NCBI GenBank assembly: GCA_963707875.1
Contig: CAVPRU010000014.1
Span: 149,767-213,766, forward strand
Reading direction: 5' to 3'
Source: an uncultured Gemmatimonadales bacterium
GTDB lineage: Bacteria; Gemmatimonadota; Gemmatimonadetes; Gemmatimonadales; GWC2-71-9
Length of the DNA: 64,000 nucleotides
The notes beneath the pieces are model-generated. The model saw nothing but the letters and a program-made list of their open reading frames with translations. It did no database searches and was not told where the DNA came from. The first letter of the stretch is position 1. Each line of letters opens with the position of its first letter. This document shows positions 6,629 through 37,982 of this stretch, one piece after another. The position numbers were made by a program, and so were the translations under genes.

Positions 6629-6726
6629 TGGCGGGAGCGTGTGGGAATCGAACCCACCGGAGTCGCCGAGGGCGCCTCCGTCGCGGTTTTGAAGACCGGC
6701 CAAGCCACCAGGCCCGATCCGCCCCC
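6629..6726 (-). tRNA. selC: candidate tRNA-Sec (anticodon UCA)
   Basis: 98 nt: GGGGGCGG-AU-CGGGCC-UGGU-GGCUUG-GCCGGU-CUUCAAA-ACCGCG-AC-GGAGGCGCC-CUC-GGCGACUCC-G-GUGGG-UUCGAUU-CCCAC-ACGCUCCC-G-CCA. It has a 6-bp D stem with a 4-nt loop, a long variable arm, G73 and an encoded CCA. Weak points: the anticodon stem has only 4 Watson-Crick pairs, and acceptor pair 8 is G-A. Confidence 0.7.
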
Positions 6727-10583: not shown

Positions 10584-12206
10584 TCAGATACTCAGCGTTT
10601 CCAGCGCCGGACGGCGCTGCAGCCAGAGAAGGAAGAAGGTCCGGGTCACGAAGATCGCGGTGATCATCGAGGCCACGATACCCATGATCAGGGTGATGGC
10701 GAAGCCCTTGACCGGCCCGGTCCCGAACTGGAACAGGAACAGGGCGGTGATGGCGGTACTGACGTTGGAGTCGATGATGGCCGACATCGCGTGCTTGAAC
10801 CCTTCGTCCACGGCCAGTCGGACCGTCTTGCCGAGGATCAGCTCCTCCCGGATCCGTTCGAAGATCAGCACGTTGGCGTCGACCGCGATCCCGACCGACA
10901 GCACCAGACCGGCGAGGCCGGGCAGAGTGAGGGTGGCCTCGAGCATGGCCAGTCCACCCAGGGCGAACAGGATATAGAGCCCGAGCCCGGCCACCGCGAG
11001 CACCCCGGCCATCCGGTAGTAGCCGACCATGATCGAGATGACGAGCAGGGTGCCGACCAGGCCGGCCGTGATCCCCTGGCGAATGGAGTCGCGGCCCAGG
11101 CTGGGACCGACCTGAAACTCCTCCACGATCTTGAGGGGCACCGGCAGCGAGCCCGCCTTGAGGGTCAGCGCCAGGTCCTGGGCCTCCTGAAGGCTCCGAT
11201 TGGTGAGGGTGATCTGCCCCCGAGCATCGATCCGGCTCTGAATGATCGGTGGCTGGCCCTGCACGAAGTCATCGAGCACGATGGCCATGTGATCGCCGAC
11301 GTGCCGTCCGGTTTCCGCCCCGAACTTGCGGGCCCCGGCCCGATTCAGCTCGAAGATGACGATTGGTCCGTTGCTGATCGGGTCGAGCTGGGCGGACGCG
11401 TTGATCAGGCTGGCCCCCGTGATAATCGGCCGATCCTCCAGCGCGTACAACGATCGATAGCTCTCCACCCCGAGGCTGACGGGGGCATTGGCCCACCGCA
11501 GCTCCACGCTGCGGGGCAACAGCTGCTGGATCTCCTGGAGGCTCAGCATGCTGTCCACCCTGGGATACGCCGACTCCAGCACCAGGTACTCCCCCGGCAG
11601 CTGGCCGCTGGCCACCACCAGGGCGGAGAGGATTGCCGGCCCGGTGTCCACCTTGCTGCTGTCACCGGCGGTGCTGTCGCTTCCGAGGAGTTGCTCGACG
11701 GCCGACGGAGCCTGCCGGCTGCCCTCGCCGCCCTGGACGCCCAGACCCCGCAGGACCCGGTCGATCGCCGGCATTGCGTTGTCCAGAGCCTGGGTCTTGT
11801 CGGTAATCCGGAATTCGAGGAAGGCGCTTTTCTGAACGATGGCCTTGGCCCGTCCCGGATCGGTCAGGCCGGCCAGTTCGACCACGATCCTTGAGCTGCC
11901 CGACTTCTGGACGACCGGCTCGGCCACGCCAAACTCATCGATGCGCTTTCGGAGTACGGTCAGCGCCAGGTCGATGTCGTTCTCGACGTTGGTAGAGACT
12001 CGTTTCTCCTGGTCGAGCTCCAGCCCGAGGTGCATCCCCCCTCGGAGGTCGAGCCCCAGTTTCAGGGGTACCCGGGTGACCCGGACGTCGCGCATCACGC
12101 CGTCCTCGCCCCGTTCCCGGGTCGTCTGATCCCGGGGAAAGAGGTGGAAGATCGAGAGGGCAACCAGTGCCCCGATGCCCAGCAGTCGTTTGGTGATCGG
12201 TGCCAT
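10584..12206 (-). CDS. secD: protein translocase subunit SecD
   Basis: From MAPITKRLLGIGALVALSIF (aa 95 of ORF 10584..12488): LGLDLRGGMHL...IVLDDFV...IDANVLIFERIREE. The first 94 aa of the ORF overlap ribF and are Arg/Gly-rich. Confidence 0.9.
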   Translation of the reverse strand: MAPITKRLLGIGALVALSIFHLFPRDQTTRERGEDGVMRDVRVTRVPLKLGLDLRGGMHLGLELDQEKRVSTNVENDIDLALTVLRKRIDEFGVAEPVVQKSGSSRIVVELAGLTDPGRAKAIVQKSAFLEFRITDKTQALDNAMPAIDRVLRGLGVQGGEGSRQAPSAVEQLLGSDSTAGDSSKVDTGPAILSALVVASGQLPGEYLVLESAYPRVDSMLSLQEIQQLLPRSVELRWANAPVSLGVESYRSLYALEDRPIITGASLINASAQLDPISNGPIVIFELNRAGARKFGAETGRHVGDHMAIVLDDFVQGQPPIIQSRIDARGQITLTNRSLQEAQDLALTLKAGSLPVPLKIVEEFQVGPSLGRDSIRQGITAGLVGTLLVISIMVGYYRMAGVLAVAGLGLYILFALGGLAMLEATLTLPGLAGLVLSVGIAVDANVLIFERIREELILGKTVRLAVDEGFKHAMSAIIDSNVSTAITALFLFQFGTGPVKGFAITLIMGIVASMITAIFVTRTFFLLWLQRRPALETLSI

Positions 12207-12208
12207 CG

Positions 12209-13180
12209 TCAGTCGTCCCCAGGTATCCCCTCGGGCCGCGGGCTGGTGCGGAGGATCTCCTCCGCCCGAGCGCGGTCGTTGAACAATTGTCGCTGGAGCG
12301 CCTGGAGGGATGCAAACCTCCGGATGCCGCGCAGCCGCTGTACCCATTCCACCCGCACCGGCGCCCCATACAGGTCTGGCTCGACGCCAAACAGGTGCAC
12401 TTCCACGGTCTGACCGGTCTCCCCCACGGTGGGACGCGGGCCCTGATTCAGCATCCCGCCGACCCGGCCACCGGCCCACTCGACCCACACCCCGTAGACC
12501 CCGTCCGGCGGGAGCAGCTTCCGGGAGGGCACCGCCAGGTTGGCGGTCGGCACCCCGATGGTCCTTCCCCGCCCGGCCCCCGGAACGACTACGGCGGAGA
12601 GCCGGTACGGTCGGCCGAGGAGGCGGGCGGCCAGCTCCAGCTGGCCCCGTGTCACCGCCTCCCGGATCCGGGTACTCGACACCAACCCCACCACCGGATC
12701 CACCACCGGCGGCACCACGTCCACCGTGAAGCCCAACTCGGCGCCCAGCCGGTTCAGCAGCGCCGCGTCCCCCTGACGCCCCCGGCCGAAGCCGTGGTCC
12801 TCGCCGATGACCAATTCCCGCATGCCCAACCGCGCCAGCAGAATATCCCGCACAAACTGCCCGGGTGGCAGAGTCCTGAGCCCCTCATCGAACTGCAGGA
12901 GGACCGCCCGATGGAGGCCGGTCTCCGCCAGGATTTCCCGACGCTCCACGTCGGTCGTCAACCGCCTGGGCGCCGTCGCCGGGTTGACCACTTCCATCGG
13001 GTGTGGTTCAAAGGTCACCAGCACGCTCTGGCGTCCGGTGACCGCCGCCCGCCGAGTGATCTCACGCAGCACCGCAAGATGTCCCCGGTGCACCCCGTCG
13101 AAGGAGCCCACGGTGACCACCGTTTCGGCCGCTCCCGTCGGCTCGGTCACAGCGGCTCCAGCACCAGCCGCGGACGCCAC
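12209..13180 (-). CDS. ribF: bifunctional riboflavin kinase / FMN adenylyltransferase
   Basis: VTVGSFDGVHRGHLAVL...GEDHGFGRGRQG...VSSTRIREA...GRTIGVPTANL. Confidence 0.9.
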   Translation of the reverse strand: MASAAGAGAAVTEPTGAAETVVTVGSFDGVHRGHLAVLREITRRAAVTGRQSVLVTFEPHPMEVVNPATAPRRLTTDVERREILAETGLHRAVLLQFDEGLRTLPPGQFVRDILLARLGMRELVIGEDHGFGRGRQGDAALLNRLGAELGFTVDVVPPVVDPVVGLVSSTRIREAVTRGQLELAARLLGRPYRLSAVVVPGAGRGRTIGVPTANLAVPSRKLLPPDGVYGVWVEWAGGRVGGMLNQGPRPTVGETGQTVEVHLFGVEPDLYGAPVRVEWVQRLRGIRRFASLQALQRQLFNDRARAEEILRTSPRPEGIPGDD

Positions 13181-13986
13181 CGGTCACCCTGCCCTTCACC
13201 CACGGCCACGAGTCGCCCCTCCCACATCAGGCCTACCTCGCCGGCGGCCTGCGCCCGGAAAACCGCCCGCCCGTGGCCGACATCCTGCCGCTCCTCCGCC
13301 GTCAACTGGAGCCTCGGCAGATCCGGCACCAGGCTCTCCGGCAGGAGCGGCACCACACCGGGGCGGAGGGCCTCCAGCGGGGTCGCCTGCTCCACCCGGT
13401 GGGGGCCGATCGCCGTGCGGCGCAGCGAACGCAGGTGCCCTCCCAACCCGAGCCGCTCCCCGATGTCCCGCCCCAGGGCCCGGATATAGGTCCCCGTCGA
13501 CACGTCCGCCTCGAAGGTCAGGATCGGCGGATTCCAGTCGGTTGCCTCCAGCCGGTACACCGTCACCAGCGTCTCCGGCAACTGCACCGGTTGGCCCGAG
13601 CGGGCCAGACGGTAGGCCCGCCGGCCATCAACCCGCCGGGCACTGAAGGCCGGCGGCCGCTGCTGCCGTACTCCCCGGAACTGGTCCAGGACCGCCTCCA
13701 CCGCCTGTTGATCGGGCCAGGCCACAGGAGTCTGTCCCCCCGTGACCCTCCCCTCCGCGTCGTCGGTGTCGGTCGTCACCCCGATCACCGTCTCGGCGCG
13801 GTAGCACTTGGGATACCGCTTCACCAACCGCGCCATTCTCGTCGCCGGACCGACCATCAGGATGAGCAGGCCCGTCGCAAACGGATCGAGGGTTCCCGCA
13901 TGGCCCACCGCCCTGGTCCCCAAGGCCCGCCGGGCGGCGGCCACCACATCGTGCGAGGTCGGTCCGGCTGGCTTGTCCACCGGCAA
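13147..13986 (-). CDS. truB: tRNA pseudouridine(55) synthase
   Basis: PVDKPAGPTSHDVVAAARRALGTRAVGHAGTLDPFATGLLILMVG. TTG start at 13986, written as M in the track. Confidence 0.9.
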   Translation of the reverse strand: MPVDKPAGPTSHDVVAAARRALGTRAVGHAGTLDPFATGLLILMVGPATRMARLVKRYPKCYRAETVIGVTTDTDDAEGRVTGGQTPVAWPDQQAVEAVLDQFRGVRQQRPPAFSARRVDGRRAYRLARSGQPVQLPETLVTVYRLEATDWNPPILTFEADVSTGTYIRALGRDIGERLGLGGHLRSLRRTAIGPHRVEQATPLEALRPGVVPLLPESLVPDLPRLQLTAEERQDVGHGRAVFRAQAAGEVGLMWEGRLVAVGEGQGDRWRPRLVLEPL

Positions 13987-13994
13987 CCAGCCGA

Positions 13995-14351
13995 TCAGAC
14001 CTCATCTCCTTGTCGGAGGGACGCCAGCAACTGGTCAATCCGGGCGGCGTGCTCCTGACCCCGGTCGAGCTCGAAGACAATTTCCGGCGCCACCCGGGTG
14101 GTCAGCACCTTGGCCACCTTGGTGCGGAGGAATCCCGCCGCACTGCGGAGGCCCTCCATGACCTGGTCCGCATCCACCCCGTCGCCGGTAATCACCCGGA
14201 CCCGGGCCCGGGACAGGTCCGGGGTAACCGTCACGGCGGTAATGGTGACCCGGCCGACCCGGGGATCGCGGATTTCCTGGATCAACGCTTCGCCGAGCAC
14301 CTGCCGCACCGTCTCGGCGACCTGACCACTCCGGTGGGTGTTCTTCTTCAT
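13995..14351 (-). CDS. rbfA: ribosome-binding factor A
   Basis: MKKNTHRSGQVAETVRQVLGEALIQEIRDPRVGRVTITAVTVTPDLSRARV. Start taken at the internal ATG 14351, just after the infB stop at 14356. Confidence 0.9.
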   Translation of the reverse strand: MKKNTHRSGQVAETVRQVLGEALIQEIRDPRVGRVTITAVTVTPDLSRARVRVITGDGVDADQVMEGLRSAAGFLRTKVAKVLTTRVAPEIVFELDRGQEHAARIDQLLASLRQGDEV

Positions 14352-14355
14352 CCGG

Positions 14356-17073
14356 CTACTCCCCTTCAGCCGCCACGTCACCGAGTGTCCGGCGGACTTC
14401 CTCGACCTTGAAGGCCTCGATCCGATCGCCCACCTTCAGGTCGTTGTAGTTCTCGACTCCGATCCCGCACTCAAGACCTTCGCGGACTTCCTTGACGTCG
14501 TCCTTGAACCGCTTGAGGCTGCTGAGTCCGCCGGCGTACACCGCGACGCCATCCCGAACCACGCGGACCTTGGCGGTCCGGGTGATGGTTCCCTCGCGCA
14601 CGGTACAACCGGCGATGGTCCCCACCCGGGAGATCTTGAAGATTTCGAGCACCTCGGCCTCGCCCAGCACGACCTCCTTCTGGGTCGGCTTGAGCATGCC
14701 TTCGAGCGCCAGCCGCATCTCATCCACCGCTTCGTAGATGACCCGATAGGTCCGGACGTCCACCGACTCCCGCTCGGCCGCCGCCCGCGCATTGGCGTCG
14801 GGGCGAACATGGAACCCGAGGATGATGGCCCCCGACGCCTTGGCCAGGAGCACGTCGCTCTCGGTGATGGCGCCGACGCCCCGGTGGATGACATCGACCC
14901 GCACTTCCGCGGTGCTGAGCTGGCCCAGGGCATCGGCCAGCGCTTCCGCCGGACCGCCCTGGTCGGCTTTGATGATGATGGCCAGGTTGCTGATCTCGCC
15001 GGCCTGGAGGGCGCGGGAGATGTCCTCGAGAGTGCCGCCCCGCTGACTGCGGCGGTTCTGCGCCTCCCGCTCGAGCCGCTGCCGCTTTTGGGCGATCTCT
15101 CGCGCCTGGCCCGCGTCGGCCACCACCATGAAGGTGTCACCGGCGGAGGGGACGCCCTCAAACCCGAGGACCTGGACGGGCACCGACGGGCCGGCGGACT
15201 TGACCGTGTTGCCCCGTTCGTCAAACAGCGCCCGGACCCGCCCGGAAAACTTGCCGCAGATGAAATTGTCGCCAGCGACCAGGGTCCCTCGCCGGACCAG
15301 CACGGTGGCCAGGGGGCCCTTGCCGGGATCGAGGGTGGCCTCGAGGACCGCGCCCTGCGCCGCCCCCACCGGGCTGGCCTTGAGGTCGAGGATCTCGGCC
15401 TGGAGGAGCACCTGCTCCAGCAGCTGGGGAACCCCCTTGCCGGTCTTGGCCGACAGCTCGACGCAGAGCACCTGTCCGCCGAACTCCTCCAGCACCACGT
15501 TGTGCTGGAGCAGGTCCTGCTTGACCTTGGGGATGTTGGCGGAAGGCAGATCCACCTTGTTGATGGCGACCACCATGGGCACCCCGGCGTTCTTGGCGTG
15601 GCTGATGGCCTCGATCGTCTGGGGCATTACCTGGTCGTCGGCCGCGATCACCAGCACCACGATATCCGTGACCTGGGCCCCGCGGGCCCGCATCGCGGTG
15701 AAGGCTTCGTGACCAGGGGTATCCAGGAAGGTGAGGACCTTGCCATCCGCCACTTCGACATTGTACGCGCCGATGTGCTGGGTGATGCCCCCGGCCTCAC
15801 CGGCGACGATATTGGCCTTCCGGATGAAGTCGAGCAGTGAGGTCTTGCCGTGGTCGACGTGGCCCATGATGGTCACCACCGGCGGCCGGGGCTCCGGAGT
15901 GCCCTCCTCCTCCACGACGACGTCGGCCACATCGGCCATGTACTCGTCTTCCCGGACCGCCTCGAACCCGAACGCCCCGGCAATCAACTCGATCTGGTCG
16001 AAGTCGAGCCGCTGGTTCATGGTCACCATCAGGCCCAGTTCCTTGAAAGCGAACTGGACGATCTGGCTGGGGGACACCTTCATGATATCGGCCAGCTCCG
16101 AGACCGAGATGAACTCGTTCACCCGGATCCGGGTCTTCTCCCGCTCCCGCTCTTCGGCCGCGAGGCCGGCCATCATGTCCCGATACGACGGATCGTCGGA
16201 CCGTCCCCGCTTGCGCCCACCACCACCACGAATGCCGGCGAGGGTCTTGAGGATGTTGGCCTGCACCACATCCTGGTCCACGTCAGGCCGACGGTTGCGG
16301 CGTCCCTTCTTGCGGGCTCCGCCGGCGCCGCCCCCACCACCGGGCTTCGGCGCCTCGGTCGGACGGGAACTCGGGGGCGATGCCCCGGGCCGTCCGCCTC
16401 GCGGCGGGGCCGGACTGGCGGAACTGAAGACCGGCCGGGGCCCGCCCTCGGGACGACGAACCCGCGGCGGAATGAACGGCGGCTTGGCCGCTGGAGGCGC
16501 GGCGCTTCTGGCGCTGGGGAGCGGAGTGGTCGGTGGGGTGGCCGCCACGGCTGGCTTGGACTTGGGCTCTGCCGGCGCCGGCTCGGGGACGGAGGCTTCA
16601 AGGCTCGCGGCCTCGGGCTCGTCCTTGAACAGCACCCGGGCCCGCTCCTGAATGGTCGGCATCGGCTCGCCCGACTTGGGCTCCGGCACCTCGAAGGCGA
16701 TCTGGCTCCGCTCCTTCTCGAACACCAGAGCCTCTTCGGCGGCCTGGGCGGCCTCGGCCTGCGCCACCGCCTCGGCTTCGGCCACTTCGGCGGCCGTCCG
16801 GCGGCGCCGGGTCGGGCGCGCAGCCACCGGAGCAACCTCCGGTGGTGCCTCCGCTTCCGCCTTCTTCCGCCGGGCGGCCTTGGCCTTCTTCGGGGGCGCC
16901 GCGGCGCGGCGCTTTTCCCGCTCCCAGCGCACCCGGACGGCAGCGACCTGCCCGTCGTCCAGCGACGAGGTCGCGCCACGGGCGGTGACGCCCATCTCGC
17001 GGAGCACGGGCAGCAATTCCGCCGAGGGAACGCCGAATTCCTTGGCCAGGTCCTGCACCTTGGTCTTGACCAC
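14356..17073 (-). CDS. infB: translation initiation factor IF-2
   Basis: 905 aa: [14 protein letters not shown]..., an Ala/Pro/Arg-rich N-domain, and the GTPase core [17 protein letters not shown]...DTPGHEAF...NKVD. GTG start preceded by GGAGGAG. Confidence 0.97.
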
Positions 17074-17394
17074 TCAGTCTCCTCCGTCTGACCCTGTCGC
17101 GGCGGCGCGGACAATGCCTTGCGCCAGACCGTCGTCCACTATCCCAACCACCATCACCGGCGGCCGACCCAGTGCCTGCCCCATGGCGTCGGCCACCGGT
17201 CCTGTCACCATCCGGATTCCACGACCCTGCGCCAGTCGGACGACCTTTTCGATCGCCCTTGGCGAGATATCGCTCGCGGTCACCAAACACCGGCAGCGCC
17301 CGCGCTGCAGCGCCGCCCGGACCGCGTCCACCCCAATCACCACCGCGCCGGCCCGCGCCCCAAGGCCCAGCAGGCCGAGGAGCCCGCCGCTCAT
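17074..17394 (-). CDS. L7Ae/YlxQ-family RNA-binding protein
   Basis: 106 aa in the conserved position between nusA and infB: LLGLGARAGAVVIGVDAVRAALQRGRCRCLVTASDISPRAIEKV. ATGA overlap with nusA. Confidence 0.7.
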   Translation of the reverse strand: MSGGLLGLLGLGARAGAVVIGVDAVRAALQRGRCRCLVTASDISPRAIEKVVRLAQGRGIRMVTGPVADAMGQALGRPPVMVVGIVDDGLAQGIVRAAATGSDGGD

Positions 17395-18782
17395 GCCGGC
17401 TGGGCGTCCTCCGGGCCGGTCGCCACTGGGGGAGCCCCTTCAGCCACGGCGGGGGCCGACGCGGGCAGCTCCGCCTCATCGACCTCCGCCGGCCCGACCA
17501 GCTCGGCCAGGAAGCCGAGAAGCTCGTTCGCCAGGGGTTCCGTCATCCCGGCGATCTTGAGCATGTCCTCCCGCTCCAGATCCAGGACATCATTGAGCAC
17601 CTTCAGCTTGGCCGCGGCCAGCGCCGCCACCAGTTCCGTCGAGAGCCCTTCCATCTCGGCCAGGGGGACCTGGCTGACCACATCCTCCTCGGCCAGCGGG
17701 GGCAAGGCGAACAGCGGACCTTCCCCGCCCCGATCCAGCCACTCCCGGCTGGAGTAGAGGTCGATCTTCCAGCCGGTCAGTTCGGAAGCGAGCCGTACGT
17801 TCTGGCCGTTCCGTCCAATGGCCAGCGAGAGCTGGTCCTCGTCGACCACTGCCTGAATCGTCTTGCTGACCGGATCGGAGAAGACCTTTGCTACCCGGGC
17901 CGGCGCGAGCGCCAGCCGGGCAAATCGCTCGGGATCCGGTGACCACGGCACAATGTCGATCCGCTCACCACTCAACTCATTCACGACCGCCTGGACCCGG
18001 GAGCCCTTGAGGCCGACGCAGGCCCCGACCGGATCGATCGCATCGTCCCGGCTGATGACCGCCACCTTGGTCCGGCTGCCGACTTCGCGAGCGATCCCCC
18101 GAATCTCCACGATGTCCTGGGCGATCTCCGGGACCTCGAGCCGGAACAGCGCGGCCACGAACCCCGGGTCAGCCCGGGAGAGGATCAGCCGGGGCCCCTT
18201 CGGGGTCTCTTCCAGTCGCTTGAGGACGGCCCGAATCGTGTCCCCCTGGTGGAAATGCTCCCGGTGATTCTGTTCGCGATAGGGGATGATGGCTTCGGCC
18301 TCGCGGAACTTGGCCAGCATCAGCACCAGCTTGCCGCGTTCGATCTGCTGGATCTCGCCGGACAGCAGCTCTCCGACTTTGTCGCCGAACTCGTCCCGGA
18401 TCTTGGTCCGCTCGCCCTCCCGGACCCGCTGGATGATCCGCTGCTTGGCGGCCTGAACGGCCAGCCGCCCGAACTCATGGAACGGGACATCCTCCTCCAG
18501 CACGTCGCCGACCGCAAAGTCGGGGTCGATGAACTGGGCCTCTTCAACGGTAACCTGCCAGGAGGGGTCTTCGACCTCCTCCACGACATGGCGCAGCCTG
18601 ACCACGCGGAGGATGCCCTGGAGCTCGTCCACCGTCAGCTCGAACTTGACGCCAGCCCCGAACTTCCGGGCCAGTGCCGCCTGAATCCCATCGGTCAGCA
18701 GGGCCAACAACTCGTTGCGCTCCAGCTGCTTGGCCTGGGTCAGTTCGCGAAAGGCGGCCAGCATCTCCGCGGATCCTGCCAT
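17391..18782 (-). CDS. nusA: transcription termination/antitermination factor NusA
   Basis: From [29 protein letters not shown] (aa 54 of ORF 17391..18941); S1 and KH regions [14 protein letters not shown]...[14 protein letters not shown]...[17 protein letters not shown] lies 5 nt upstream of ATG 18782. Confidence 0.95.
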
Positions 18783-18959
18783 GGGGTCTCCTATGACCTG
18801 GTCCCGAGAGGCTAACCCTCCGGGATATCGTGTGTTACCCGCGCAGGTCCGGCTGGGAACAACCGGCGGTCGTCTCCGACCGGTGGCGTGGGTCGAGCGC
18901 TGCCACAAGAAGCCGGAAGCGGCTGGGGACGGCGGGCGCACAGGCCCCCCTATGGGGCC

Positions 18960-18986
18960 AAAAAAAATGTGGGGGAACCCCCCACA
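18960..18986 (-). terminator. rho-independent terminator in the nusA upstream region
   Basis: Minus strand UGUGGGGGG-UU-CCCCCACA followed by U8, seen on the plus strand as a8 then tgtgggggaaccccccaca. Confidence 0.7.
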
Positions 18987-19022
18987 TCCAACAGTACAGC
19001 AAGAACTTGGTTCCCCTGGAAC
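18960..19022 (-). ncRNA. candidate ~60-nt leader transcript or small RNA (promoter to terminator)
   Basis: Predicted from the promoter at 19029..19057 and the terminator at 18960..18986. Contains a 5' hairpin GUUCC-AGG-GGAAC. I recognise no RNA family. Confidence 0.35.
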
Positions 19023-19028
19023 AACGCA

Positions 19029-19057
19029 AATCTACCCCCGCCCCAACAGACCGTCAA
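19029..19057 (-). promoter_or_regulatory. sigma70-like promoter TTGACG-17-TAGATT
   Basis: Minus strand: TTGACG (19057..19052), a 17-nt spacer, TAGATT (19034..19029). It lies in the gap between the stop at 19086 and the terminator. Confidence 0.5.
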
Positions 19058-19085
19058 CCCGGCCCCACTCCCTGAGGCAGGATCC

Positions 19086-19445
19086 CTAGTTCGGGATGTT
19101 GGAGACGGTGACGACCTGACTGGCGGTTCCACTGTTCCCGACCGCATCGAAGGCCTGGGCCTTGAGCGTCACCGGACCGTTGGACCCGGGAACGGTGTTC
19201 CACTGGGTGGTCCAGGGCCGGGTGGTGTCCTCGAAGAGGACCTGATTCCCGACGGAGAAGATGACCCTTACCACGGCGACGTCATCGGTCGCGTCGGCCG
19301 CGAACTCGACGATGCCGCTGACGATCGGTCCCGCGGGCGAGGTGATGATGATGGTGGGCGGGCCGGCATCGGTCAGCCCGATCCCGAGGCAACCCACGAC
19401 CGCCACCGTTCCACCGGCCAGCAGCAAGGCAAGACGCAATCGCAT
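19086..19445 (-). CDS. small lipoprotein with bacterial Ig-like domain
   Basis: MRLRLALLLAGGTVAVVGC lipobox, then IIITSPAGPIVSGIVEFAADATDDVAVVRVIFSV...VTLKAQAFDAVGNSG. 119 aa taken from the internal ATG of ORF 19086..19838. Confidence 0.6.
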   Translation of the reverse strand: MRLRLALLLAGGTVAVVGCLGIGLTDAGPPTIIITSPAGPIVSGIVEFAADATDDVAVVRVIFSVGNQVLFEDTTRPWTTQWNTVPGSNGPVTLKAQAFDAVGNSGTASQVVTVSNIPN

Positions 19446-19489
19446 CGCTCCATCCTCCTGAGGGGGCCCCGCTTCGCAGAGGGGGAACC

Positions 19490-20233
19490 TTAGGGCCGGA
19501 GTGCGAGGTAGGCAACCATCCGGCCGTCCCGGCCCCCGCTTCGCCGGTGGCTGAAGAGCCGATCCGGGAGTTCCGACGAACATAATTGTGATGTGGATAT
19601 CTCCCCTACCCCCATCCGCCTCGCCTGCGCCACCAGCACCACCCGAAGGTCCACCTGGAACGGGCCGGTCCCCGGGCAGGCGACCCCCAGGGCCCTCGGC
19701 ACCTCGGCGCCAACCTCGTAGCAGGCCCCACAGATCCCCGGGCCCAAGTGCATGGCGACGTCTTCCACCCGGGTCCCCGCCCGCGCCTGGAGGCACTCGA
19801 TCCCGGCGGCCAGGATTCCCGCGGCGGTTCCCCGCCACCCGGCATGGAGCAGGGCGACGGCCCGGGCGGCCGGATCCACCAGATAGACCGGGATGCAGTC
19901 GGCCACCGTCACGGCGAGCAGCAGGCCCGGGGTCCGGCTGGCGTGGCCGTCGCTGCCGTCGTGGAGGGAGAGACCGGCCGGGAGATCCCGGTGCCAGCTG
20001 ACCCGGTTGCCGTGAACTTGGCGGGAGACCACCACCGACCGGGCACCGGTCGCCGCCTGGAGGGCCCGCCAGCGGTCCAGGACGGCCCCGACCGGAGCGC
20101 CTCCCGCCAACCCGAGGTCGAAGGGAGCCGGCTCCCTCCCTCGCTCGGTGATTCCCGCCACCACCCTGAACCGTTCGGACCAGCCGGGCACTTCCGTGTG
20201 GGGTACCTCGACCGGAGAGTCGGGGCTAGTCAC
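19490..20233 (-). CDS. pgeF: YfiH/PgeF-family (DUF152) purine nucleoside phosphorylase / laccase-domain protein
   Basis: SRQVHGNRV...AVTVADCIPVYLVDP...ALLHAGWRGTAAGI...GPGICGACYEVG. GTG 20233 lies just after the murA stop. Confidence 0.85.
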   Translation of the reverse strand: MTSPDSPVEVPHTEVPGWSERFRVVAGITERGREPAPFDLGLAGGAPVGAVLDRWRALQAATGARSVVVSRQVHGNRVSWHRDLPAGLSLHDGSDGHASRTPGLLLAVTVADCIPVYLVDPAARAVALLHAGWRGTAAGILAAGIECLQARAGTRVEDVAMHLGPGICGACYEVGAEVPRALGVACPGTGPFQVDLRVVLVAQARRMGVGEISTSQLCSSELPDRLFSHRRSGGRDGRMVAYLALRP

Positions 20234-21506
20234 TCCGGGCGATCTGCGCCCCAAGGGCCTGGAGTCGCTCGTCGATCCGTTCATAGCCCCGATCGATCTG
20301 TCCGATGTTGTGGATCACGCTCTCCCCTTCGGCTGCCAGGGCGGCCAGCAGGATCGCCATACCGGCCCTGATATCCGGCGATTCCACTCGACTTCCCCGG
20401 AGCCGGGACGGCCCGTGGATGACCGCCCGGTGCGGATCGCACAGGACGATGCGGGCCCCCATCCCGATCAGCTTGTCGACGAAGAAGAGTCGCGACTCGA
20501 ACATCTTCTCGAACACCAGCAACACCCCCGCGCACTGGGTGGCGGTGACCAGGGCGATCGACATCACGTCGGCGGGAAACGCCGGCCAGGGTCCGTCTTC
20601 CAACTTGGGGATGTGGTCCCCGAGATCCGGACGGATCCGGCGCTCCTGGTTGGCGTCGACATGCAGCTGGTCGCCCTCCAGGCGGGGGCGGACCCCCAGC
20701 CGGTCGAAACCCAGCAGGATGCTCCGGAGGTCGGTTCCCCGAACCCCCTCGATCGTCAACCCGCTGTTGGTGACCGCGGCGAGTCCGATGAAGCTGCCGA
20801 TCTCGATGTGGTCGGGCCCGATCTCGAACTGGGTCCCCCGGAGCGGGCGCCCGCCCTGAACCCGATAGGTGTTGCTGCCGATGCCGTCGATCTCCGCCCC
20901 CATGGCCACCAGGAACCGGGCCAGATCCTGGACGTGGGGCTCGCTGGCCGCGTTCCGGAGTATGGTCTCACCCTGGGCGACGACCGCCGCCAGAAGCGCG
21001 TTCTCGGTCCCGGTGACCGATGGCTCATCCAGAAACAGGTCCGTCCCGACCAATCGGCGCGCCTCGATCTCATAGTGCGCCCCCACGAGGATCGACGCCC
21101 CGAGGGCCTCGAACGCCATCATGTGGGTGTCGATTCGGCGCCGGCCGATGACGTCCCCCCCGGGGGGTGGGAGCTTGACCGTCCCGAATCGGCCCAGCAG
21201 CGGGCCGGCGAGCAGGATCGAGGCCCGGATTCGGGCGCAGAGGTCGGGATCGAGCGGTCGGCTCTCGGCGTGGGCCGGATCGATCCGGAGCGCGTTGGAT
21301 CCGGTCCAGGTGACCTCGGCGCCCAGATGGGCGATCAGGGCCGCCATGTCCTCAACATCGCGGATCCGGGGCACGTTGAGCAGGTCCACCGGCCCCTCGG
21401 CCAGGAGGGTCGCGGCCAGAATGGGGAGCGCCGCATTCTTGTTTCCCGCCGGGCGTATCGTACCCCGGAGTGGGGCACCACCCTGAACAACGAATCGCTG
21501 AGCCAT
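20226..21506 (-). CDS. murA: UDP-N-acetylglucosamine 1-carboxyvinyltransferase
   Basis: MAQRFVVQGGAPLRGTIRPAGNKNAALPILAATLLAEG...; 426 aa from ATG 21506. Confidence 0.95.
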   Translation of the reverse strand: MAQRFVVQGGAPLRGTIRPAGNKNAALPILAATLLAEGPVDLLNVPRIRDVEDMAALIAHLGAEVTWTGSNALRIDPAHAESRPLDPDLCARIRASILLAGPLLGRFGTVKLPPPGGDVIGRRRIDTHMMAFEALGASILVGAHYEIEARRLVGTDLFLDEPSVTGTENALLAAVVAQGETILRNAASEPHVQDLARFLVAMGAEIDGIGSNTYRVQGGRPLRGTQFEIGPDHIEIGSFIGLAAVTNSGLTIEGVRGTDLRSILLGFDRLGVRPRLEGDQLHVDANQERRIRPDLGDHIPKLEDGPWPAFPADVMSIALVTATQCAGVLLVFEKMFESRLFFVDKLIGMGARIVLCDPHRAVIHGPSRLRGSRVESPDIRAGMAILLAALAAEGESVIHNIGQIDRGYERIDERLQALGAQIARSD

Positions 21507-21579
21507 GGGGCAAACCTCGCGCTCGACGGCCCGGTGCGTCAAGGCACCATTCGTCAAGAGGGATGCTTATCTTAGAAAC

Positions 21580-22020
21580 ATGCCGATTCTCGGAACCCTG
21601 ATCATGCTCCAGACCGGGGCCGCTCAGCCGGCGGCCTGGGTCGGTCCGACCATGGCCATTTCCCTTGCCGTCCTGGCGCTGTCGTTCGTGGTGATCGCGG
21701 CCATGGCGGCGGTCATTGGCACCCGCACGCTTCGCGCCGGGCGCCGGGTCGAGGAGGCCGCGGACGCGACCCGGGGGCTCGCGGTCAAGGTCCAGGACGA
21801 GGTCACCGAACTGGTCCGGACCAGTCAGCGGCTTCGGTTCGAGGTGGACCGGGGGGTCCGGCGGGCCAAGCGACGGCTCCAGGATCTGGACGCCGTCGCC
21901 GAGGTCGTGCAGGAGGAGATCGAGGAGACGGCGCTGGACGTCGCCGCCACGCTGCGCACCGTCCGGGTTGGACGCGGGGTGCTCGGCCGGATCACTCGGC
22001 TGCTCTGGAAGCGCCGGTGA
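21580..22020 (+). CDS. hypothetical membrane-anchored coiled-coil protein (DUF948-like)
   Basis: From MPILGTLIMLQTG..., a TM segment AISLAVLALSFVVIAAMAAVIG and then a charged helical region. Confidence 0.5.
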   Translation: MPILGTLIMLQTGAAQPAAWVGPTMAISLAVLALSFVVIAAMAAVIGTRTLRAGRRVEEAADATRGLAVKVQDEVTELVRTSQRLRFEVDRGVRRAKRRLQDLDAVAEVVQEEIEETALDVAATLRTVRVGRGVLGRITRLLWKRR

Positions 22021-23024
22021 CCGGTCGCCGCCTGCTCGGGGCGGCACTGGTCGGGTTCGCCGCCCTGTTCCTGCTGCCCGACCCGCTCTGGGCGTGGACC
22101 CCGGGCACCCACATCTGGCTGGCCGAGTCCGTCCTGGCCAATCTCCATCTCCTTCCGCCCCAGGTGGCGGACCTGCTGCACGCTTTCCCCTTCGATTTCC
22201 TGTACGGCAGCATCGCCCCCGACACCTCGCTGGCCAAGAAGTACGTTCCCCCGGGGCGGCACAGTCACTACTGGCAGATCGGGCGGGAGGTCTTCGATCA
22301 AGCCCCGAGCGACGCCCTGCGGGCGTTCGGCATGGGCTACCTGTCCCACCTGGCGGCGGACACGGTGGCCCACAACTTCTACGTGCCGCGCCAACTATTA
22401 CTGACCAGCAGTACCCGCTCGATGGGCCACTCCTACTGGGAGCTGCGGGTGGAGACCCATCTGACCGACGCCTTTGCACGACAGGCCCGCGACATCATCA
22501 TGCTCGACCACCAGGCCGCCGATCGGCACCTGGAGCGGATCATCTCCCCGACCATCTTCAGCGTCCGGACCAATCGCCGTCTGTTCAGGGGCCTGGTGCA
22601 TCTGGCGCACACCAAGAGTTGGCAACGAGCCATGAGCACCGCCCGGGAACGGAGCCGGTGGATTCTGACCGACGCGGACGTGGATCGGCACCTGGCCGCG
22701 ACCTACGATGTAACCATGGAGGCGCTGATTCACCCGACCGTCCCGGCGCTGGCCCTCGATCTGGACCCGATCGGGGCACGCAATCTCCGGCATGCCAAGC
22801 GGATGCGCCGCTCGGAGGTGTTGAAGGGCGTCTGGTTCGAGCCGGAGCGGCTGATTCCGATGGCGGAAGCGGAGTTCGGCTTGCCCTCGCAGTTGCCGGG
22901 GTTCTGGCAGGATTCCATCATCGTGCGTCCTTGGCTGACGGCCGGGACGAATGGTGACGATCAGGCAGAGCGAAGTGCGGCGACCCCATCGAGCAACCGC
23001 TCCACTTCCTCGTCGGAGTTGTAG
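22017..23024 (+). CDS. zinc-dependent phospholipase C-like protein
   Basis: Signal-like N-terminus, then WTPGTHIWLAE, FLYGSIAPD and YLSHLAADTVAHNFY metal-ligand-like motifs. The 3' end overlaps the convergent aminotransferase gene by 64 nt. Confidence 0.6.
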   Translation: MTGRRLLGAALVGFAALFLLPDPLWAWTPGTHIWLAESVLANLHLLPPQVADLLHAFPFDFLYGSIAPDTSLAKKYVPPGRHSHYWQIGREVFDQAPSDALRAFGMGYLSHLAADTVAHNFYVPRQLLLTSSTRSMGHSYWELRVETHLTDAFARQARDIIMLDHQAADRHLERIISPTIFSVRTNRRLFRGLVHLAHTKSWQRAMSTARERSRWILTDADVDRHLAATYDVTMEALIHPTVPALALDLDPIGARNLRHAKRMRRSEVLKGVWFEPERLIPMAEAEFGLPSQLPGFWQDSIIVRPWLTAGTNGDDQAERSAATPSSNRSTSSSEL

Positions 23025-24205
23025 CAGGAATAGCCCACCCGGACCAAACCCTCCCTTTCCAATCCCAGCCGTTCCAGGACGGTGGCCGCGTAGAAGTCCC
23101 CGTGCGAGAGGAACAGCCCCCGATCGACCAGCCGGCGGGCCACCGCCTCACTCGAATGGCCGGCGACGGTGAAACCGAGGGTGGAGGTTCGGGGACGGTC
23201 GGGGCCGGGGCCGTAGACGGTGACCCCGGGGAGGGCCGCCAGCCCCTCCCAAGTGCGCCGGACCTGGGCCGCCGCCCGGGCATGGAGCACGGCGTAGCTG
23301 TCCCGCAGTGCCTCGCGCAGGGTGGTCCGCCCTGGAGCCAGATCACCCAGAAACCGGATCGCCGCTTCGGTCCCGGCGATCGCTTCATGACTCAGGGTGC
23401 CGGTCTCGAGCCGCTCCGGCGCCGTGTCCGGCGCGGGCGCCAGTCGGGGAACCCGCACCGCGGCCAGCAGGTCACCGCGACCCCAGAGGACCCCGAGGTG
23501 GGGACCATAGAACTTGTACGGTGAGCAGGCGAAGAAATCGCAACCGGTACGGTCCACGTCGGGGAGCAGGTGGGGGGTCGAGTGGACTCCATCCACGAAG
23601 GAAAGCGCCCCGGCCGCCCGAGCCAGGTCGCAGGCGCGCCGCACGTCGGAGACGACGCCCAGCGCATTGGAGGCGGCCCCGATCGCCAGGAGCTTCGTGC
23701 GAGGGCCGATCGACCGCTCCAGCGCTTCCCAGATCAACTCGCCGCTGGCCGGGTTGAACGGCACCGACCGGATCACGATCCCGCGTTCGGCTTCCAGGAC
23801 GGTCCAGGGTGCCCGGTTCGCGTGATGATCGAGATCGGTAATCACCACCTCGTCCCCGGGACCCCACTCGCGGGCCAGCCCCCGCGCCAGATGGAAGGTC
23901 AGCGTGGTCATGTTCTGGCCGAATACAACCTCCGAAGCCCGTCCATTCAGAAACTCTGCGACCACCTCCCGGGCCTGGAGGATGATGTCATCGGTTTCCT
24001 CGCTGGACGGATAGGCCCAATGGGTGTTGGCGTTGTGGTGGGTGAGGTAGTCCACCATCGCCCCCAGCACCACCTGTGGGACCTGGGTGCCACCGGGTCC
24101 GTCGAGAAAGGCCACCGGGTGCCCCCGATGGCGACGGCGAAGCGCCGGAAACGCTTCCTGGATCGTCGTGAGATCCGCCACCGCTGGCGTCGTCGTGTCC
24201 CTCAT
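22961..24205 (-). CDS. class V aminotransferase, cysteine desulfurase-like family
   Basis: 414 aa: AFLDGPGGTQVP...VITDLDHHANRAPW...FFACSPYKFYGPHLGVLWG. Confidence 0.8.
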   Translation of the reverse strand: MRDTTTPAVADLTTIQEAFPALRRRHRGHPVAFLDGPGGTQVPQVVLGAMVDYLTHHNANTHWAYPSSEETDDIILQAREVVAEFLNGRASEVVFGQNMTTLTFHLARGLAREWGPGDEVVITDLDHHANRAPWTVLEAERGIVIRSVPFNPASGELIWEALERSIGPRTKLLAIGAASNALGVVSDVRRACDLARAAGALSFVDGVHSTPHLLPDVDRTGCDFFACSPYKFYGPHLGVLWGRGDLLAAVRVPRLAPAPDTAPERLETGTLSHEAIAGTEAAIRFLGDLAPGRTTLREALRDSYAVLHARAAAQVRRTWEGLAALPGVTVYGPGPDRPRTSTLGFTVAGHSSEAVARRLVDRGLFLSHGDFYAATVLERLGLEREGLVRVGYSCYNSDEEVERLLDGVAALRSA

Positions 24206-25620
24206 CCCTTGAGCCTCCTCAGCAGTACCGGCTGCACCCCTTTGGGATCCGCCTTGCCCTGGCTTCGCTTCATGACCTGCCCGACCAGAAACCCGAGCAG
24301 CTTTGCTTCCCCACCGCGGAACCGGGTCACCTCGGCTGGGCAGGCGGCGATCACCTCGTCGACCCAGGCTTCGAGCGCTCCGGTGTCCCGGACCTGGATC
24401 AGCCCCAGCCGTTCCGCCGCCACCAGTGGTGCTTCCCCACCCACCAGTTCGGGGAGCACCTTCTTGGCCGCCTGCAGGCTGACGGTGCCGGCGGCGACCA
24501 GCCCGATCAGAGCCGCCAGCCGAACGGGCTCAACCGCAAACGCCCCGGTCTCGTTGTAGCCGGTCATCACCTCCGACATCACCCAATTGGCGGCCGCCTT
24601 CGGATCGGCTCCGGCACCCACCACCAGTTCGAAATAGTCGGCCAGCGCCACCTCGCTGCTCAGCACCCCGGTGTCATAGTCCGGCAGACCATACACCCGT
24701 CCCAGGCGGGCCCGCTTGGCGTCCGGCAGCTCGGGCAACGCCGCGCGTTCCTGCTCCACCCACGCCGGGGCCAGCACCAGGGGCGGGAGGTCAGGCTCGG
24801 GGAAGTAGCGATAGTCGTGGCTCGCCTCCTTGGACCGCATCGGGCGCGCCTGACCCACGGCCGCGTCGTACAGCATGGTCACCTGACTGATCTCGCCGCC
24901 GCTTTCCAGCACCTGGATCTGGCGATCCCGCTCGGCCTCAAGAGCCCGCTCCACGTTCGCAAAGCTGTTCAGGTTCTTGATCTCGGTCTTGGTGCCCAGC
25001 CGGGTCTCCCCTGCTTGGCGAACCGAGACGTTGGCGTCCACCCGGAGACTTCCCTGCTCCATGCTGCAATCACTGATGCCGGCGTACAGCAGCACCTGCT
25101 TCATCGCGGTGAGGTAGGCCCGGGCATCGGCCGGTGAACCCAGGTCCGGCTCGCTCACGATTTCTGCCAGGGGAACCCCCGCCCGGTTGAGATCCACCGC
25201 AGTCATCCCGGGGAAGCGATCGTGCAGCGACTTGCCCGCGTCCTCCTCCAGATGGAGCCGGGTGATCCCGACGGTCAGCTCGCCCCGCTCCGGGGACCCG
25301 ATCCGGAGTTGTCCTCCCGTGGCGAGCGGCCGGTCGAACTGGCTGATCTGATAGCCCTTCGGAAGGTCCGGGTAGAAGTAGTTCTTCCGGCTGAAGATGC
25401 TGGTCCCATGGATGGTGCAGCCCAGCGCCAGCGCGGCCCGCACCCCGAGGCGGACCGCTTCCTCATTGGGGACCGGCAGCGCCCCCGGGAGACCAAGGCA
25501 GACCGGGCAGACGTTGGTGTTCGGCTGTTCGCCGAACACCGCCGCGCAGCCGCAGAACATCTTGCTCCGGGTCGCCAGCTGGACGTGGACCTCGAGCCCG
25601 ATGACCGTTTCCCAGCTCAT
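24202..25620 (-). CDS. gatB: Asp/Glu-tRNA(Asn/Gln) amidotransferase subunit B
   Basis: MSWETVIGLEVHVQLATRSKMFCGC...NVCPVCLGLPGALPV. Confidence 0.95.
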   Translation of the reverse strand: MSWETVIGLEVHVQLATRSKMFCGCAAVFGEQPNTNVCPVCLGLPGALPVPNEEAVRLGVRAALALGCTIHGTSIFSRKNYFYPDLPKGYQISQFDRPLATGGQLRIGSPERGELTVGITRLHLEEDAGKSLHDRFPGMTAVDLNRAGVPLAEIVSEPDLGSPADARAYLTAMKQVLLYAGISDCSMEQGSLRVDANVSVRQAGETRLGTKTEIKNLNSFANVERALEAERDRQIQVLESGGEISQVTMLYDAAVGQARPMRSKEASHDYRYFPEPDLPPLVLAPAWVEQERAALPELPDAKRARLGRVYGLPDYDTGVLSSEVALADYFELVVGAGADPKAAANWVMSEVMTGYNETGAFAVEPVRLAALIGLVAAGTVSLQAAKKVLPELVGGEAPLVAAERLGLIQVRDTGALEAWVDEVIAACPAEVTRFRGGEAKLLGFLVGQVMKRSQGKADPKGVQPVLLRRLKG

Positions 25621-26996
25621 CGGACCTCCTCCGTGGCTGGGAGATTCCGTTCCAGCACCCCAGCCGCTTCCAGCATCAGGGTATCCCCGAGGTAGGGCGC
25701 GATGAACTGACCGCCGACGGGGAGGCCCTCACTCCGCCCGATCGGGACACTCACCCCGGGCAGACCGGCCAGGTTGACGGCGCAGACGAAGATGTCGGCC
25801 AGGTACATGGCCACCGGATCGCCGATCTTCTCGCCGGCCTTGAAAGCGGTACTCGGCGCGGTCGGGGTGAAGAGCAGGTCCACCCCACCGGCAAAGACGC
25901 CCTGAAAATCGGCGGCGATCGCTGAACGCATCCGCTGGGCCTTGCCGTAATAGGCGTCGTAGTATCCGGAACTGAGCACGTAGGTGCCGGTCAGAATTCG
26001 ACGGCGCACCTCGGGGCCGAAGCCGCGCCCCCGGGTCTGCCGGTACAGCCCCCGCAGGTCAACCGCCGTGTCCGGTCGGCTGGGGCCGTAGCGGACCCCA
26101 TCGTAGCGGGCCAGGTTGGCGGACGCCTCGGCTGGCGCGATGATATAGTAGGTCGGCACCGCGAACGGCGAGTGAGGCAACGAGACCGGAACGACCTTGC
26201 CCCCCAGAGCTCGAATGGCGGCCACCGCCCGGTCGGTCGCCGCCCGGACTCCGGAGTCGAGGTCGGCCGGGAAGTACTCTTCCGGGAGCCCGATCGTGAG
26301 CCCCGAAAAGTCCTTCCGGCCCAACGGCAGGGCCACGGGTGGACGATCCAGCGACGTGGCATCGAGCGGATCGTGGCCGCTGATGGTATGGAGCACCCGG
26401 GCGGCGTCATCCACCGTCTGCCCGAAGACCGAGACGCAATCGAGCGAGGACCCGAAGGCCACGAGACCATAGCGGCTCACGGTACCGTACGAGGGCTTGA
26501 CGCCGATCACCCCGCAGAAGCTGGCCGGCTGACGGACCGATCCGCCGGTCTCCGACCCGAGTGCGGCGGGGACGACGCCCGCCGCGACGAGGGCGGCGGA
26601 ACCGCCGGAGGAGCCCCCGGGAACCCGGGTTGGATCGATCGGGTGGAGGACCCGGCCGAAGGCCGAGTGTTCCGTCGAGGACCCCATCGCAAACTCGTCG
26701 AGGTTGGCCTTGGCCGCGATCAGCGCCCCGGCCTGGCGCAACCGCCGGATGACCGTGGCCTCGAAGGGCGACTGGTAGCCCTCCAGAATGCGAGAGCCGC
26801 AGGTGGTCGGCGTCCCGAGGGTGGCAAGGTTGTCCTTGACCGCCACCGGCATTCCCCCCAGCGTCGACCGCCCCATCGCCTCGACCGCCTCCGCCTGTTG
26901 CAGCAGGTCCCCGGCCGACCAATGCAGCGTCGCGTTCAGGCCACTTGCGGCCTCGAGCTTCCGGGCGACTTCGGTCGCCATCTCCCGCACGCTCAT
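25617..26996 (-). CDS. gatA: Glu-tRNA(Gln) amidotransferase subunit A
   Basis: Amidase signature: VAVKDNLAT...GGSSGGSAALVAAG...GSETGGSVRQPASFCG. Confidence 0.95.
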   Translation of the reverse strand: MSVREMATEVARKLEAASGLNATLHWSAGDLLQQAEAVEAMGRSTLGGMPVAVKDNLATLGTPTTCGSRILEGYQSPFEATVIRRLRQAGALIAAKANLDEFAMGSSTEHSAFGRVLHPIDPTRVPGGSSGGSAALVAAGVVPAALGSETGGSVRQPASFCGVIGVKPSYGTVSRYGLVAFGSSLDCVSVFGQTVDDAARVLHTISGHDPLDATSLDRPPVALPLGRKDFSGLTIGLPEEYFPADLDSGVRAATDRAVAAIRALGGKVVPVSLPHSPFAVPTYYIIAPAEASANLARYDGVRYGPSRPDTAVDLRGLYRQTRGRGFGPEVRRRILTGTYVLSSGYYDAYYGKAQRMRSAIAADFQGVFAGGVDLLFTPTAPSTAFKAGEKIGDPVAMYLADIFVCAVNLAGLPGVSVPIGRSEGLPVGGQFIAPYLGDTLMLEAAGVLERNLPATEEVR

Positions 26997-37937: not shown

Positions 37938-37982
37938 AGGAACTCCCTCAGACTGAAGTGTAACTTGTTGTGGGACAAGAAA

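Follow-up and report, generated by a model that had tools for sequence, protein, structure and literature searches.

A probable promoter-terminator attenuator in the nusA operon leader of an uncultured Gemmatimonadales bacterium

Here, we report a promoter-terminator module at the head of the nusA-ylxQ-infB-rbfA-truB-ribF operon in a 64-kb stretch of DNA (68% GC) from an uncultured Gemmatimonadales bacterium (contig CAVPRU010000014.1, positions 149,767 to 213,766; hereafter the window, with positions counted from its first letter). The module lies in the 303-nt gap between the stop codon of a lipoprotein gene (19086) and the nusA ATG (18782), and all of its features are on the minus strand. 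Our preferred reading, to which we give a probability of roughly three in four, is that it represents the promoter and leader terminator (attenuator) of this operon. Its architecture and context fit a Gemmatimonadales form of the widespread "rimP-leader" known from other phyla. An earlier note, made from the letters of this DNA, had offered an attenuator or an independent small RNA (sRNA) as explanations; comparison with related genomes supports the attenuator and lends no support to the sRNA.

In the proposed mechanism, RNA polymerase would start ~7 nt past the -10 hexamer TAGATT, near position 19022, and ~60 nt farther on would reach a GC-rich hairpin followed by eight U residues (U8). Some polymerases would terminate at U8, releasing an RNA of ~60 nt, and the remaining ones would read through to produce the operon mRNA. 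NusA stimulates hairpin-dependent pausing and intrinsic termination, and abundant NusA would lower the fraction of polymerases reading through, a negative feedback. We infer both that transcription terminates at the U-tract and that NusA modulates this termination; that NusA is the effector here, as suggested by analogy with other bacteria, seems to us an even bet. The terminator hairpin would also end transcripts arriving from the upstream murA-yfiH-lipoprotein genes, which is compatible with an attenuator and may be a second function.

The principal features are as follows.
19052..19057, minus strand: -35 hexamer TTGACG (promoter scan; conservation)
19029..19034, minus strand: -10 hexamer TAGATT, 17 nt from the -35 hexamer (promoter scan)
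19021..19023, minus strand: predicted transcription start (from the usual distance, 6-8 nt past the -10 hexamer)
18968..18986, minus strand: terminator hairpin UGUGGGGG-GUU-CCCCCACA (scan, folds, covariation, covariance model)
18960..18967, minus strand: U8 tract, directly 3' of the stem
18783..18959, minus strand: GC-rich read-through leader, 177 nt, in the place held by rimP in most relatives
14356..18782, minus strand: regulated genes nusA-ylxQ-infB (open reading frames [ORFs]), with rbfA, truB and ribF next

Promoter and terminator of the leader

A consensus scan of positions 12000-26000 returned the TTGACG/TAGATT pair (9/12) as its sole sigma-70-like match. Taken by itself, the window promoter is no better than chance (1 site versus 0.9 expected in 14 kb), and only its conservation makes it convincing. 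For comparison, we used the nusA loci of 80 related species-level Gemmatimonadales genomes (L001-L080), and the complete module (TTGACn-16/18-TAnnnT, 31-84 nt, GC hairpin, T-run) was present in 76 of them, which gives 77 elements with the window. Among 72 distinct related loci, TTGAC was near-invariant (T71, T71, G72, A64, C69) and TAnnnT was kept in 70; the spacer was 17 nt in 55 of the 77 loci, 16 nt in 18 and 18 nt in 4. A promoter match of at least 9/12 occurred in 56/77 element windows versus 18/3797 (0.5%) random windows from the same loci. The -35 and -10 hexamers, the 16-18-nt spacer and the conserved position are those of a sigma-70-type promoter.

At the predicted 5' end, 5-8 nt past the -10 hexamer, most long-leader relatives conserve a GCUG(U) motif, whose window counterpart (19028-19020) reads UUGUU. 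This motif may be part of either the discriminator or the initially transcribed region.

The terminator has a G-rich 5' arm and a C-rich 3' arm, forming an 8-bp stem (6 G-C pairs) closed by the 3-nt loop GUU, with a folding energy of -14 kcal/mol. It has the anatomy of a canonical intrinsic terminator (GC-rich stem, 5 bp or more; loop, 3-8 nt; U-tract abutting the stem, 7-9 nt), and the hairpin dominates all folds. In the consensus scan of 12000-26000, the hairpin and its T-run made up one of four terminator-like sites. The U8 tract is the sole run of at least six T residues on either strand of the window and is far beyond chance at 68% GC; this genome thus seems to have very few canonical U-rich terminators. 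A covariance model of the element found a single copy in the window (43.9 bits). About 10 weaker hairpins with T-rich sequence occur elsewhere in the window, e.g., near 37982 (minus strand) and 4645 (plus strand).

These features largely bear out the earlier note, which had reported the promoter (TTGACG, 19057..19052; 17-nt spacer; TAGATT, 19034..19029), a small hairpin GUUCC-AGG-GGAAC (found at 19022-19010), a terminator with U8 (18986..18960) and ~175 nt of GC-rich, hairpin-prone leader. That leader measures 177 nt (18959-18783) and contains the hairpins it had named (e.g., GGCCCC-AUA and CGGUCG-GAGA-CGACCG). The part to be revised is the stem of the terminator, described there as a "perfect" 9+8 pairing around a 2-nt loop and in fact 8 bp long with the loop GUU. 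The note had also suggested aligning related nusA upstream regions, and in that alignment the hairpin and U-tract are conserved, with compensatory changes in the stem.

Across relatives, 89.7% of the cells in the stem alignment were paired, 0/500 shuffles reached the observed covariation, and all slid registers were worse. Compensatory changes included UA to CG (19 rows) and GC to CG (20 rows). The stem GUGGGGG/CCCCCAC of the clade that includes the window is replaced by GCGGGC/GCCCGC in a deeper clade, and the variants GUCGGG/CCCGAC and GGGGGC/GCCCCC also occur; such double-sided switches probably reflect few evolutionary events. Taken together, the alignments support structural selection on the hairpin. 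The deeper-clade terminator is weaker in design: its stem has 6 bp, its loop 7-8 nt, and 2 nt separate the stem from the U-tract.

The element is also exclusive to this operon. All T runs of at least 7 in 612 kb of related loci (62/62, both strands) and in 559 kb of metagenome contigs (120/120) belong to it; the related loci all sample one neighborhood, and their counts concern neighboring genes rather than whole genomes. Metagenome contigs with the exact 27-mer of the commonest variant numbered 120; it preceded rimP in 100 and nusA without rimP in 11, the other 9 contigs were too short to tell, and none placed it elsewhere. A general-purpose terminator or repeat was rejected, since the 27-mer was never found in another context and the window holds a single match to the covariance model. 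By inspection only, we likewise rejected a K-turn target for the L7Ae-like YlxQ: a fully paired stem with a GUU loop offers no site for tandem G-A pairs.

Remainder of the leader and gene context

Leaders form two length classes: in 23 loci the -10 hexamer and the T-run are 31-42 nt apart, and in 54, window included, 53-84 nt. The hairpin of the short-leader class begins ~4-6 nt past the predicted start, and the extra ~30 nt of the long leaders are GC rich and not conserved. Between the start and the hairpin, no sequence was conserved across relatives apart from GCUG(U), and RNAalifold on 35 long leaders gave the terminator helix only, with no second helix. An exact 8-nt complement of GGUUCCCC (18980-18973) occurs in the window as GGGGAACC (19016-19009); complementarity of the terminator to the leader upstream of it was not significant there (duplex test versus shuffles, p = 0.15) and was significant in only 10/51 sequences (mean z = -0.66). 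A conserved antiterminator was rejected on the RNAalifold and duplex results. The conserved core is the promoter and the terminator, and nothing more.

Four relatives with ~60 nt of leader before the T-run (L030, L033, L037 and L038) carry an upstream GGGGAGCUCC complementary to GGAGUUCCCC, which comprises the terminator loop and 3' arm. The predicted GGGGAGCUCC:GGAGUUCCCC duplexes reach -25 to -28 kcal/mol, with 0/200 shuffles as good, and these four may carry a lineage-specific antiterminator.

The gene next to the element is rimP in ~62 loci (tblastn; Pfam RimP_N). Its start lies 0-30 nt past the T-run in most of these loci and at most 56 nt past it, and in one clade it is directly at UUUUUUUUAUG. 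Because 0-30 nt leaves no room for a promoter, rimP and the genes downstream can be transcribed only by polymerases that cross the hairpin and its U-tract. No rimP is present here in the window and 16 relatives, where the element stands 63-210 nt before nusA (177 nt in the window). Since it is kept before nusA in these 17 genomes, the element is tied to the operon and not to rimP, and its retention after rimP loss argues that it serves nusA/infB expression rather than rimP.

In nine relatives (L052, L056, L057, L058, L061, L066, L068, L070 and L071), the rimP AUG abuts U8 (UUUUUUUUAUGCUC..., e.g., L057:3117-3127) without a Shine-Dalgarno sequence. Close relatives add 1-2 nt (C or CC) between U8 and AUG and leave the reading frame unchanged, which supports this AUG as the real rimP start. 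Terminated transcripts of these loci would end just before the rimP start codon. L057 also carries a long GC-rich inverted repeat, GGCGGCAAGG...CCUUGCCGCC, between murA and yfiH (L057:2228-2316); it has no U-tract and gave spurious microRNA-family matches on both strands.

As the earlier note had it, both rimP and ylxR are absent from the locus, and no second convincing promoter precedes the nusA Shine-Dalgarno sequence GGAGA. No rimP match was obtained anywhere in the window, including the 177-nt leader (tblastn, E <= 10), which rules out that leader as a decayed rimP; compared with related operons, the absence is a lineage-specific loss from the operon. No conservation of the 177-nt leader was found past the closest relative. 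The best other promoter match in the gap, and in 18959-18783, reaches 7/12 only, and no promoter is conserved before nusA in eight aligned rimP-less sequences (window included); a separate nusA promoter in 18959-18783 was rejected on these grounds. The nusA stop (17391) overlaps the ylxQ start (17394), so no ylxR lies between them. In most of eight relatives checked, the nusA stop overlaps or abuts the ylxQ start, with infB directly next; the exceptions are L003 and L006, where the called ylxQ ORF begins 54-105 nt past the nusA stop. None of the relatives checked has ylxR between nusA and ylxQ, and the gene is therefore missing there throughout the order and not in this window alone.

The other features of the region are as follows.
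19086..19460, minus strand: upstream gene for a small lipoprotein with a bacterial Ig (Big_7) domain (ORF list; Pfam Big_7, E = 1.5e-12)
19010..19022, minus strand: small 5' hairpin GUUCC-AGG-GGAAC, lineage specific and common to L001 only (sequence and fold)
18791-18787, minus strand: nusA Shine-Dalgarno sequence GGAGA (sequence)
18782-17391, minus strand: nusA (ORF; Pfam NusA_N, KH_5)
17394-17074, minus strand: L7Ae-like ylxQ (ORF; Pfam Ribosomal_L7Ae)
17073-14356, minus strand: infB (ORF)

The minus-strand gene order is murA, yfiH (Cu-oxidase_4), the Big_7 lipoprotein gene, the gap, nusA, the L7Ae-like ylxQ, infB, rbfA, truB and ribF. A Gemmatimonadaceae metagenome-assembled genome encodes a NusA with 95% identity to that of the window, and all best relatives are within Gemmatimonadales. 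The lipoprotein gene is the last of the murA-yfiH-lipoprotein run; its stop is 29 nt before the -35 hexamer, and its N-terminus, MRLRLALLLAGGTVAVVGC, fits a lipobox on direct reading. Most genomes have the promoter immediately behind yfiH, and a Big_7 lipoprotein gene lies between the two only in the window and 5 relatives (L001, L014, L019, L026 and L028), all from the rimP-less group. ORFs overlapping the gap (18715-19089 and 18888-19493, plus strand; 18835-19029 and 18950-19147, minus strand) had no Pfam match and were rejected as coding, being read as high-GC frame artifacts. The window also contains a tRNA-Sec gene (6629-6726, minus strand; anticodon TCA; Rfam, 67 bits; also called by ARAGORN), which implies that the organism uses selenocysteine.

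Weighing the attenuator and other explanations

Several points weigh against the attenuator. The start site, 3' ends and read-through fraction are, in this organism, predictions from sequence; a literature search found no Gemmatimonadales transcriptome data. The window terminator is strong, with a perfect 8-bp stem and an uninterrupted U8. In Bacillus subtilis, terminators that depend on NusA tend toward weak stems or interrupted U-tracts, and strong ones are less NusA dependent (PMC8060035), so NusA might add little in the window. The 177 nt to the first gene is outside the 4-130 nt published for the rimP-leader (PMC2965389), because rimP has been deleted. An Rfam search, proposed in the earlier note, gave no match at E <= 10 to RF01770 ("Gammaproteobacteria rimP leader"; gathering score, 47 bits) in the window, 7 relatives or 91-nt slices, with E. 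coli as a positive control at 102 bits, and our own covariance model had no match to the E. coli leader. The resemblance to E. coli and Firmicute leaders is thus architectural, sequence homology being not demonstrable.

The hairpin and U8 might instead act mainly as the 3' terminator of the murA-yfiH(-lipoprotein) unit, with read-through as a constitutive leak, making the element an insulator and not a sensor. The geometry would suit this, as the window hairpin is 100 nt past the lipoprotein stop and the deeper-clade hairpin ~45 nt past the yfiH stop, which itself overlaps the -35 hexamer (TTGACA), and an antiterminator is not conserved. However, no other gene end in the window or related loci has a U-rich terminator, so this unit has no obvious special need of one, and the promoter precedes the terminator by 31-84 nt in 77/77 elements despite the transcripts wasted by that order. 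The element moreover tracks the operon 5' end irrespective of the first gene (rimP or nusA) and of the inserted lipoprotein gene, and a like architecture is a recognized attenuator in other phyla (PMC2965389, PMC4448216). We regard insulation as the main role as unlikely; the insulator and attenuator roles are not mutually exclusive.

Two further explanations assign the work to the RNA itself. If the ~60-nt product were a trans-acting sRNA, with nusA transcribed from its own promoter, a promoter followed ~60 nt later by a strong terminator would be standard gene anatomy, and the weak Rfam matches of the 91-nt slice are all to sRNAs with similar terminators, none of them near its gathering score. 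Yet the 23 relatives with only 31-42 nt from the -10 hexamer to the T-run would make an RNA that is little more than the hairpin (~30-35 nt in the deeper clade), and upstream of the hairpin, where those 23 have only ~5-10 nt, neither sequence nor structure is conserved. Neither a conserved seed region nor a locus independent of the operon was found: the element is always fused to the operon 5' end and never found away from it, there is no promoter room before rimP in most relatives, and no promoter is conserved before nusA in the window clade. We consider this sRNA extremely improbable. A post-transcriptional role, with the hairpin as an mRNA-stabilizing 5' stem-loop and the U-tract as a ribosome (S1) landing site for a rimP start lacking a Shine-Dalgarno sequence, is very unlikely as well. 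It would account for the many relatives whose rimP AUG is 0-13 nt past U8 with no recognizable Shine-Dalgarno sequence, and for the short-leader hairpin ~4-6 nt from the predicted 5' end, but not for the window and the 16 rimP-less relatives, in which the hairpin and U-tract are fully kept 63-210 nt from nusA, with window nusA having its own GGAGA. A GC stem abutting eight U residues is, besides, a canonical termination signal, to which RNA polymerase is expected to respond.

A more elaborate version of the attenuator is unlikely. According to it, U-rich terminators were almost purged from high-GC Gemmatimonadales and the nusA leader keeps one as a gauge of NusA or termination capacity, to which GGGGAGCUCC in L030, L033, L037 and L038 would add a switchable antiterminator-terminator device responding to a further signal. 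Were this so, retention of the element after rimP loss would show that nusA, and not rimP, is the regulated target.

If the simpler attenuator reading holds, the rimP-leader attenuator, so far known mainly from Firmicutes and Gammaproteobacteria, would extend to Gemmatimonadota, a little-studied high-GC soil phylum. The loss of rimP from the operon, with the promoter-terminator module left intact and now directly before nusA, amounts to a natural experiment. As the sole U-rich terminator in all DNA sampled, the element shows that RNA polymerase here should still obey canonical terminators, and it makes the leader a good place to begin testing how termination and NusA work in this phylum. In annotation, it marks the true 5' end of an essential operon.

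Comparison with known systems

The generic rimP-leader (Naville and Gautheret 2010, Genome Biol 11:R97; PMC2965389) is essentially a terminator in the 5' leader of rimP-nusA-infB, 4-130 nt ahead of the gene. Its 5' arm is G rich and its 3' arm C rich, with a GGGc...gCCC core and a U stretch, and it has no antiterminator; NusA was proposed as its effector (PMC2965389). The Gemmatimonadales element has the same operon 5' position, before rimP in ~62 relatives and before nusA in the window and 16 others, and likewise no conserved antiterminator or ligand-sensing structure. The deeper clade has the exact published core (GCGGGC-N7/8-GCCCGC-U8), whereas the window clade (GUGGGGG...CCCCCAC) has a GGGG/CCCC core and not GGGC/GCCC, its arms still fitting. 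Distances to the first gene are 0-56 nt with rimP and 63-210 nt in rimP-less relatives. Common descent with the rimP-leader is not demonstrable from ~30 nt of sequence. Gemmatimonadota were not found in the supplementary files of PMC2965389 that were searched, and a literature search on terminators, rimP and nusA had no paper mentioning Gemmatimonadota among the matches listed.

RF01770 is a 102-nt model with two tandem terminators downstream of the metY tRNA gene. The operon and logic are alike, and 17 nt separate the end of the second E. coli hairpin, GGGC-UUUAG-GCCC-U7, from the rimP start; the Gemmatimonadales element differs in being a single hairpin directly behind its promoter. Other Rfam leader families gave no match in the window, the seven relatives or the 91-nt slices, where the weak matches were to unrelated sRNA terminators and were judged to be chance. 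In E. coli, NusA represses metY-rimP-nusA-infB, an operon in which terminators separate rimP from the promoter (Plumbridge 1985; Nakamura 1985; Bylund 2011; cited in PMC2965389 and PMC4448216). There, the metY tRNA gene separates the promoter from the terminators, whereas here the leader comes directly after the promoter.

In Streptococcus agalactiae, RNA-seq of gbs0413-gbs0418 (rimP-nusA-infB-rbfA) detected two transcripts, one short and one long, that share a start, with intrinsic termination 31 nt on (Rosinski-Chupin et al. 2015; PMC4448216), and NusA feedback was proposed (PMC4448216). This is another phylum, compared by architecture, in which the transcripts were seen and not, as here, predicted from sequence. 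The window leader is about twice as long, and the short-leader Gemmatimonadales clade, with 31-42 nt from the -10 hexamer to the T-run, has matching geometry.

The link to NusA autoregulation drawn in the earlier note agrees with the rimP-leader literature (PMC2965389, PMC4448216, PMC12288461), and for this organism it would hold by analogy. In B. subtilis, NusA controls its own gene by stimulating termination within the nusA leader (Mondal et al. 2016, as summarized in PMC12288461), a mechanism demonstrated by experiment there and only inferred here. The two systems are alike in that an intrinsic terminator in the 5' leader would control nusA, with the operon's own product as the effector.

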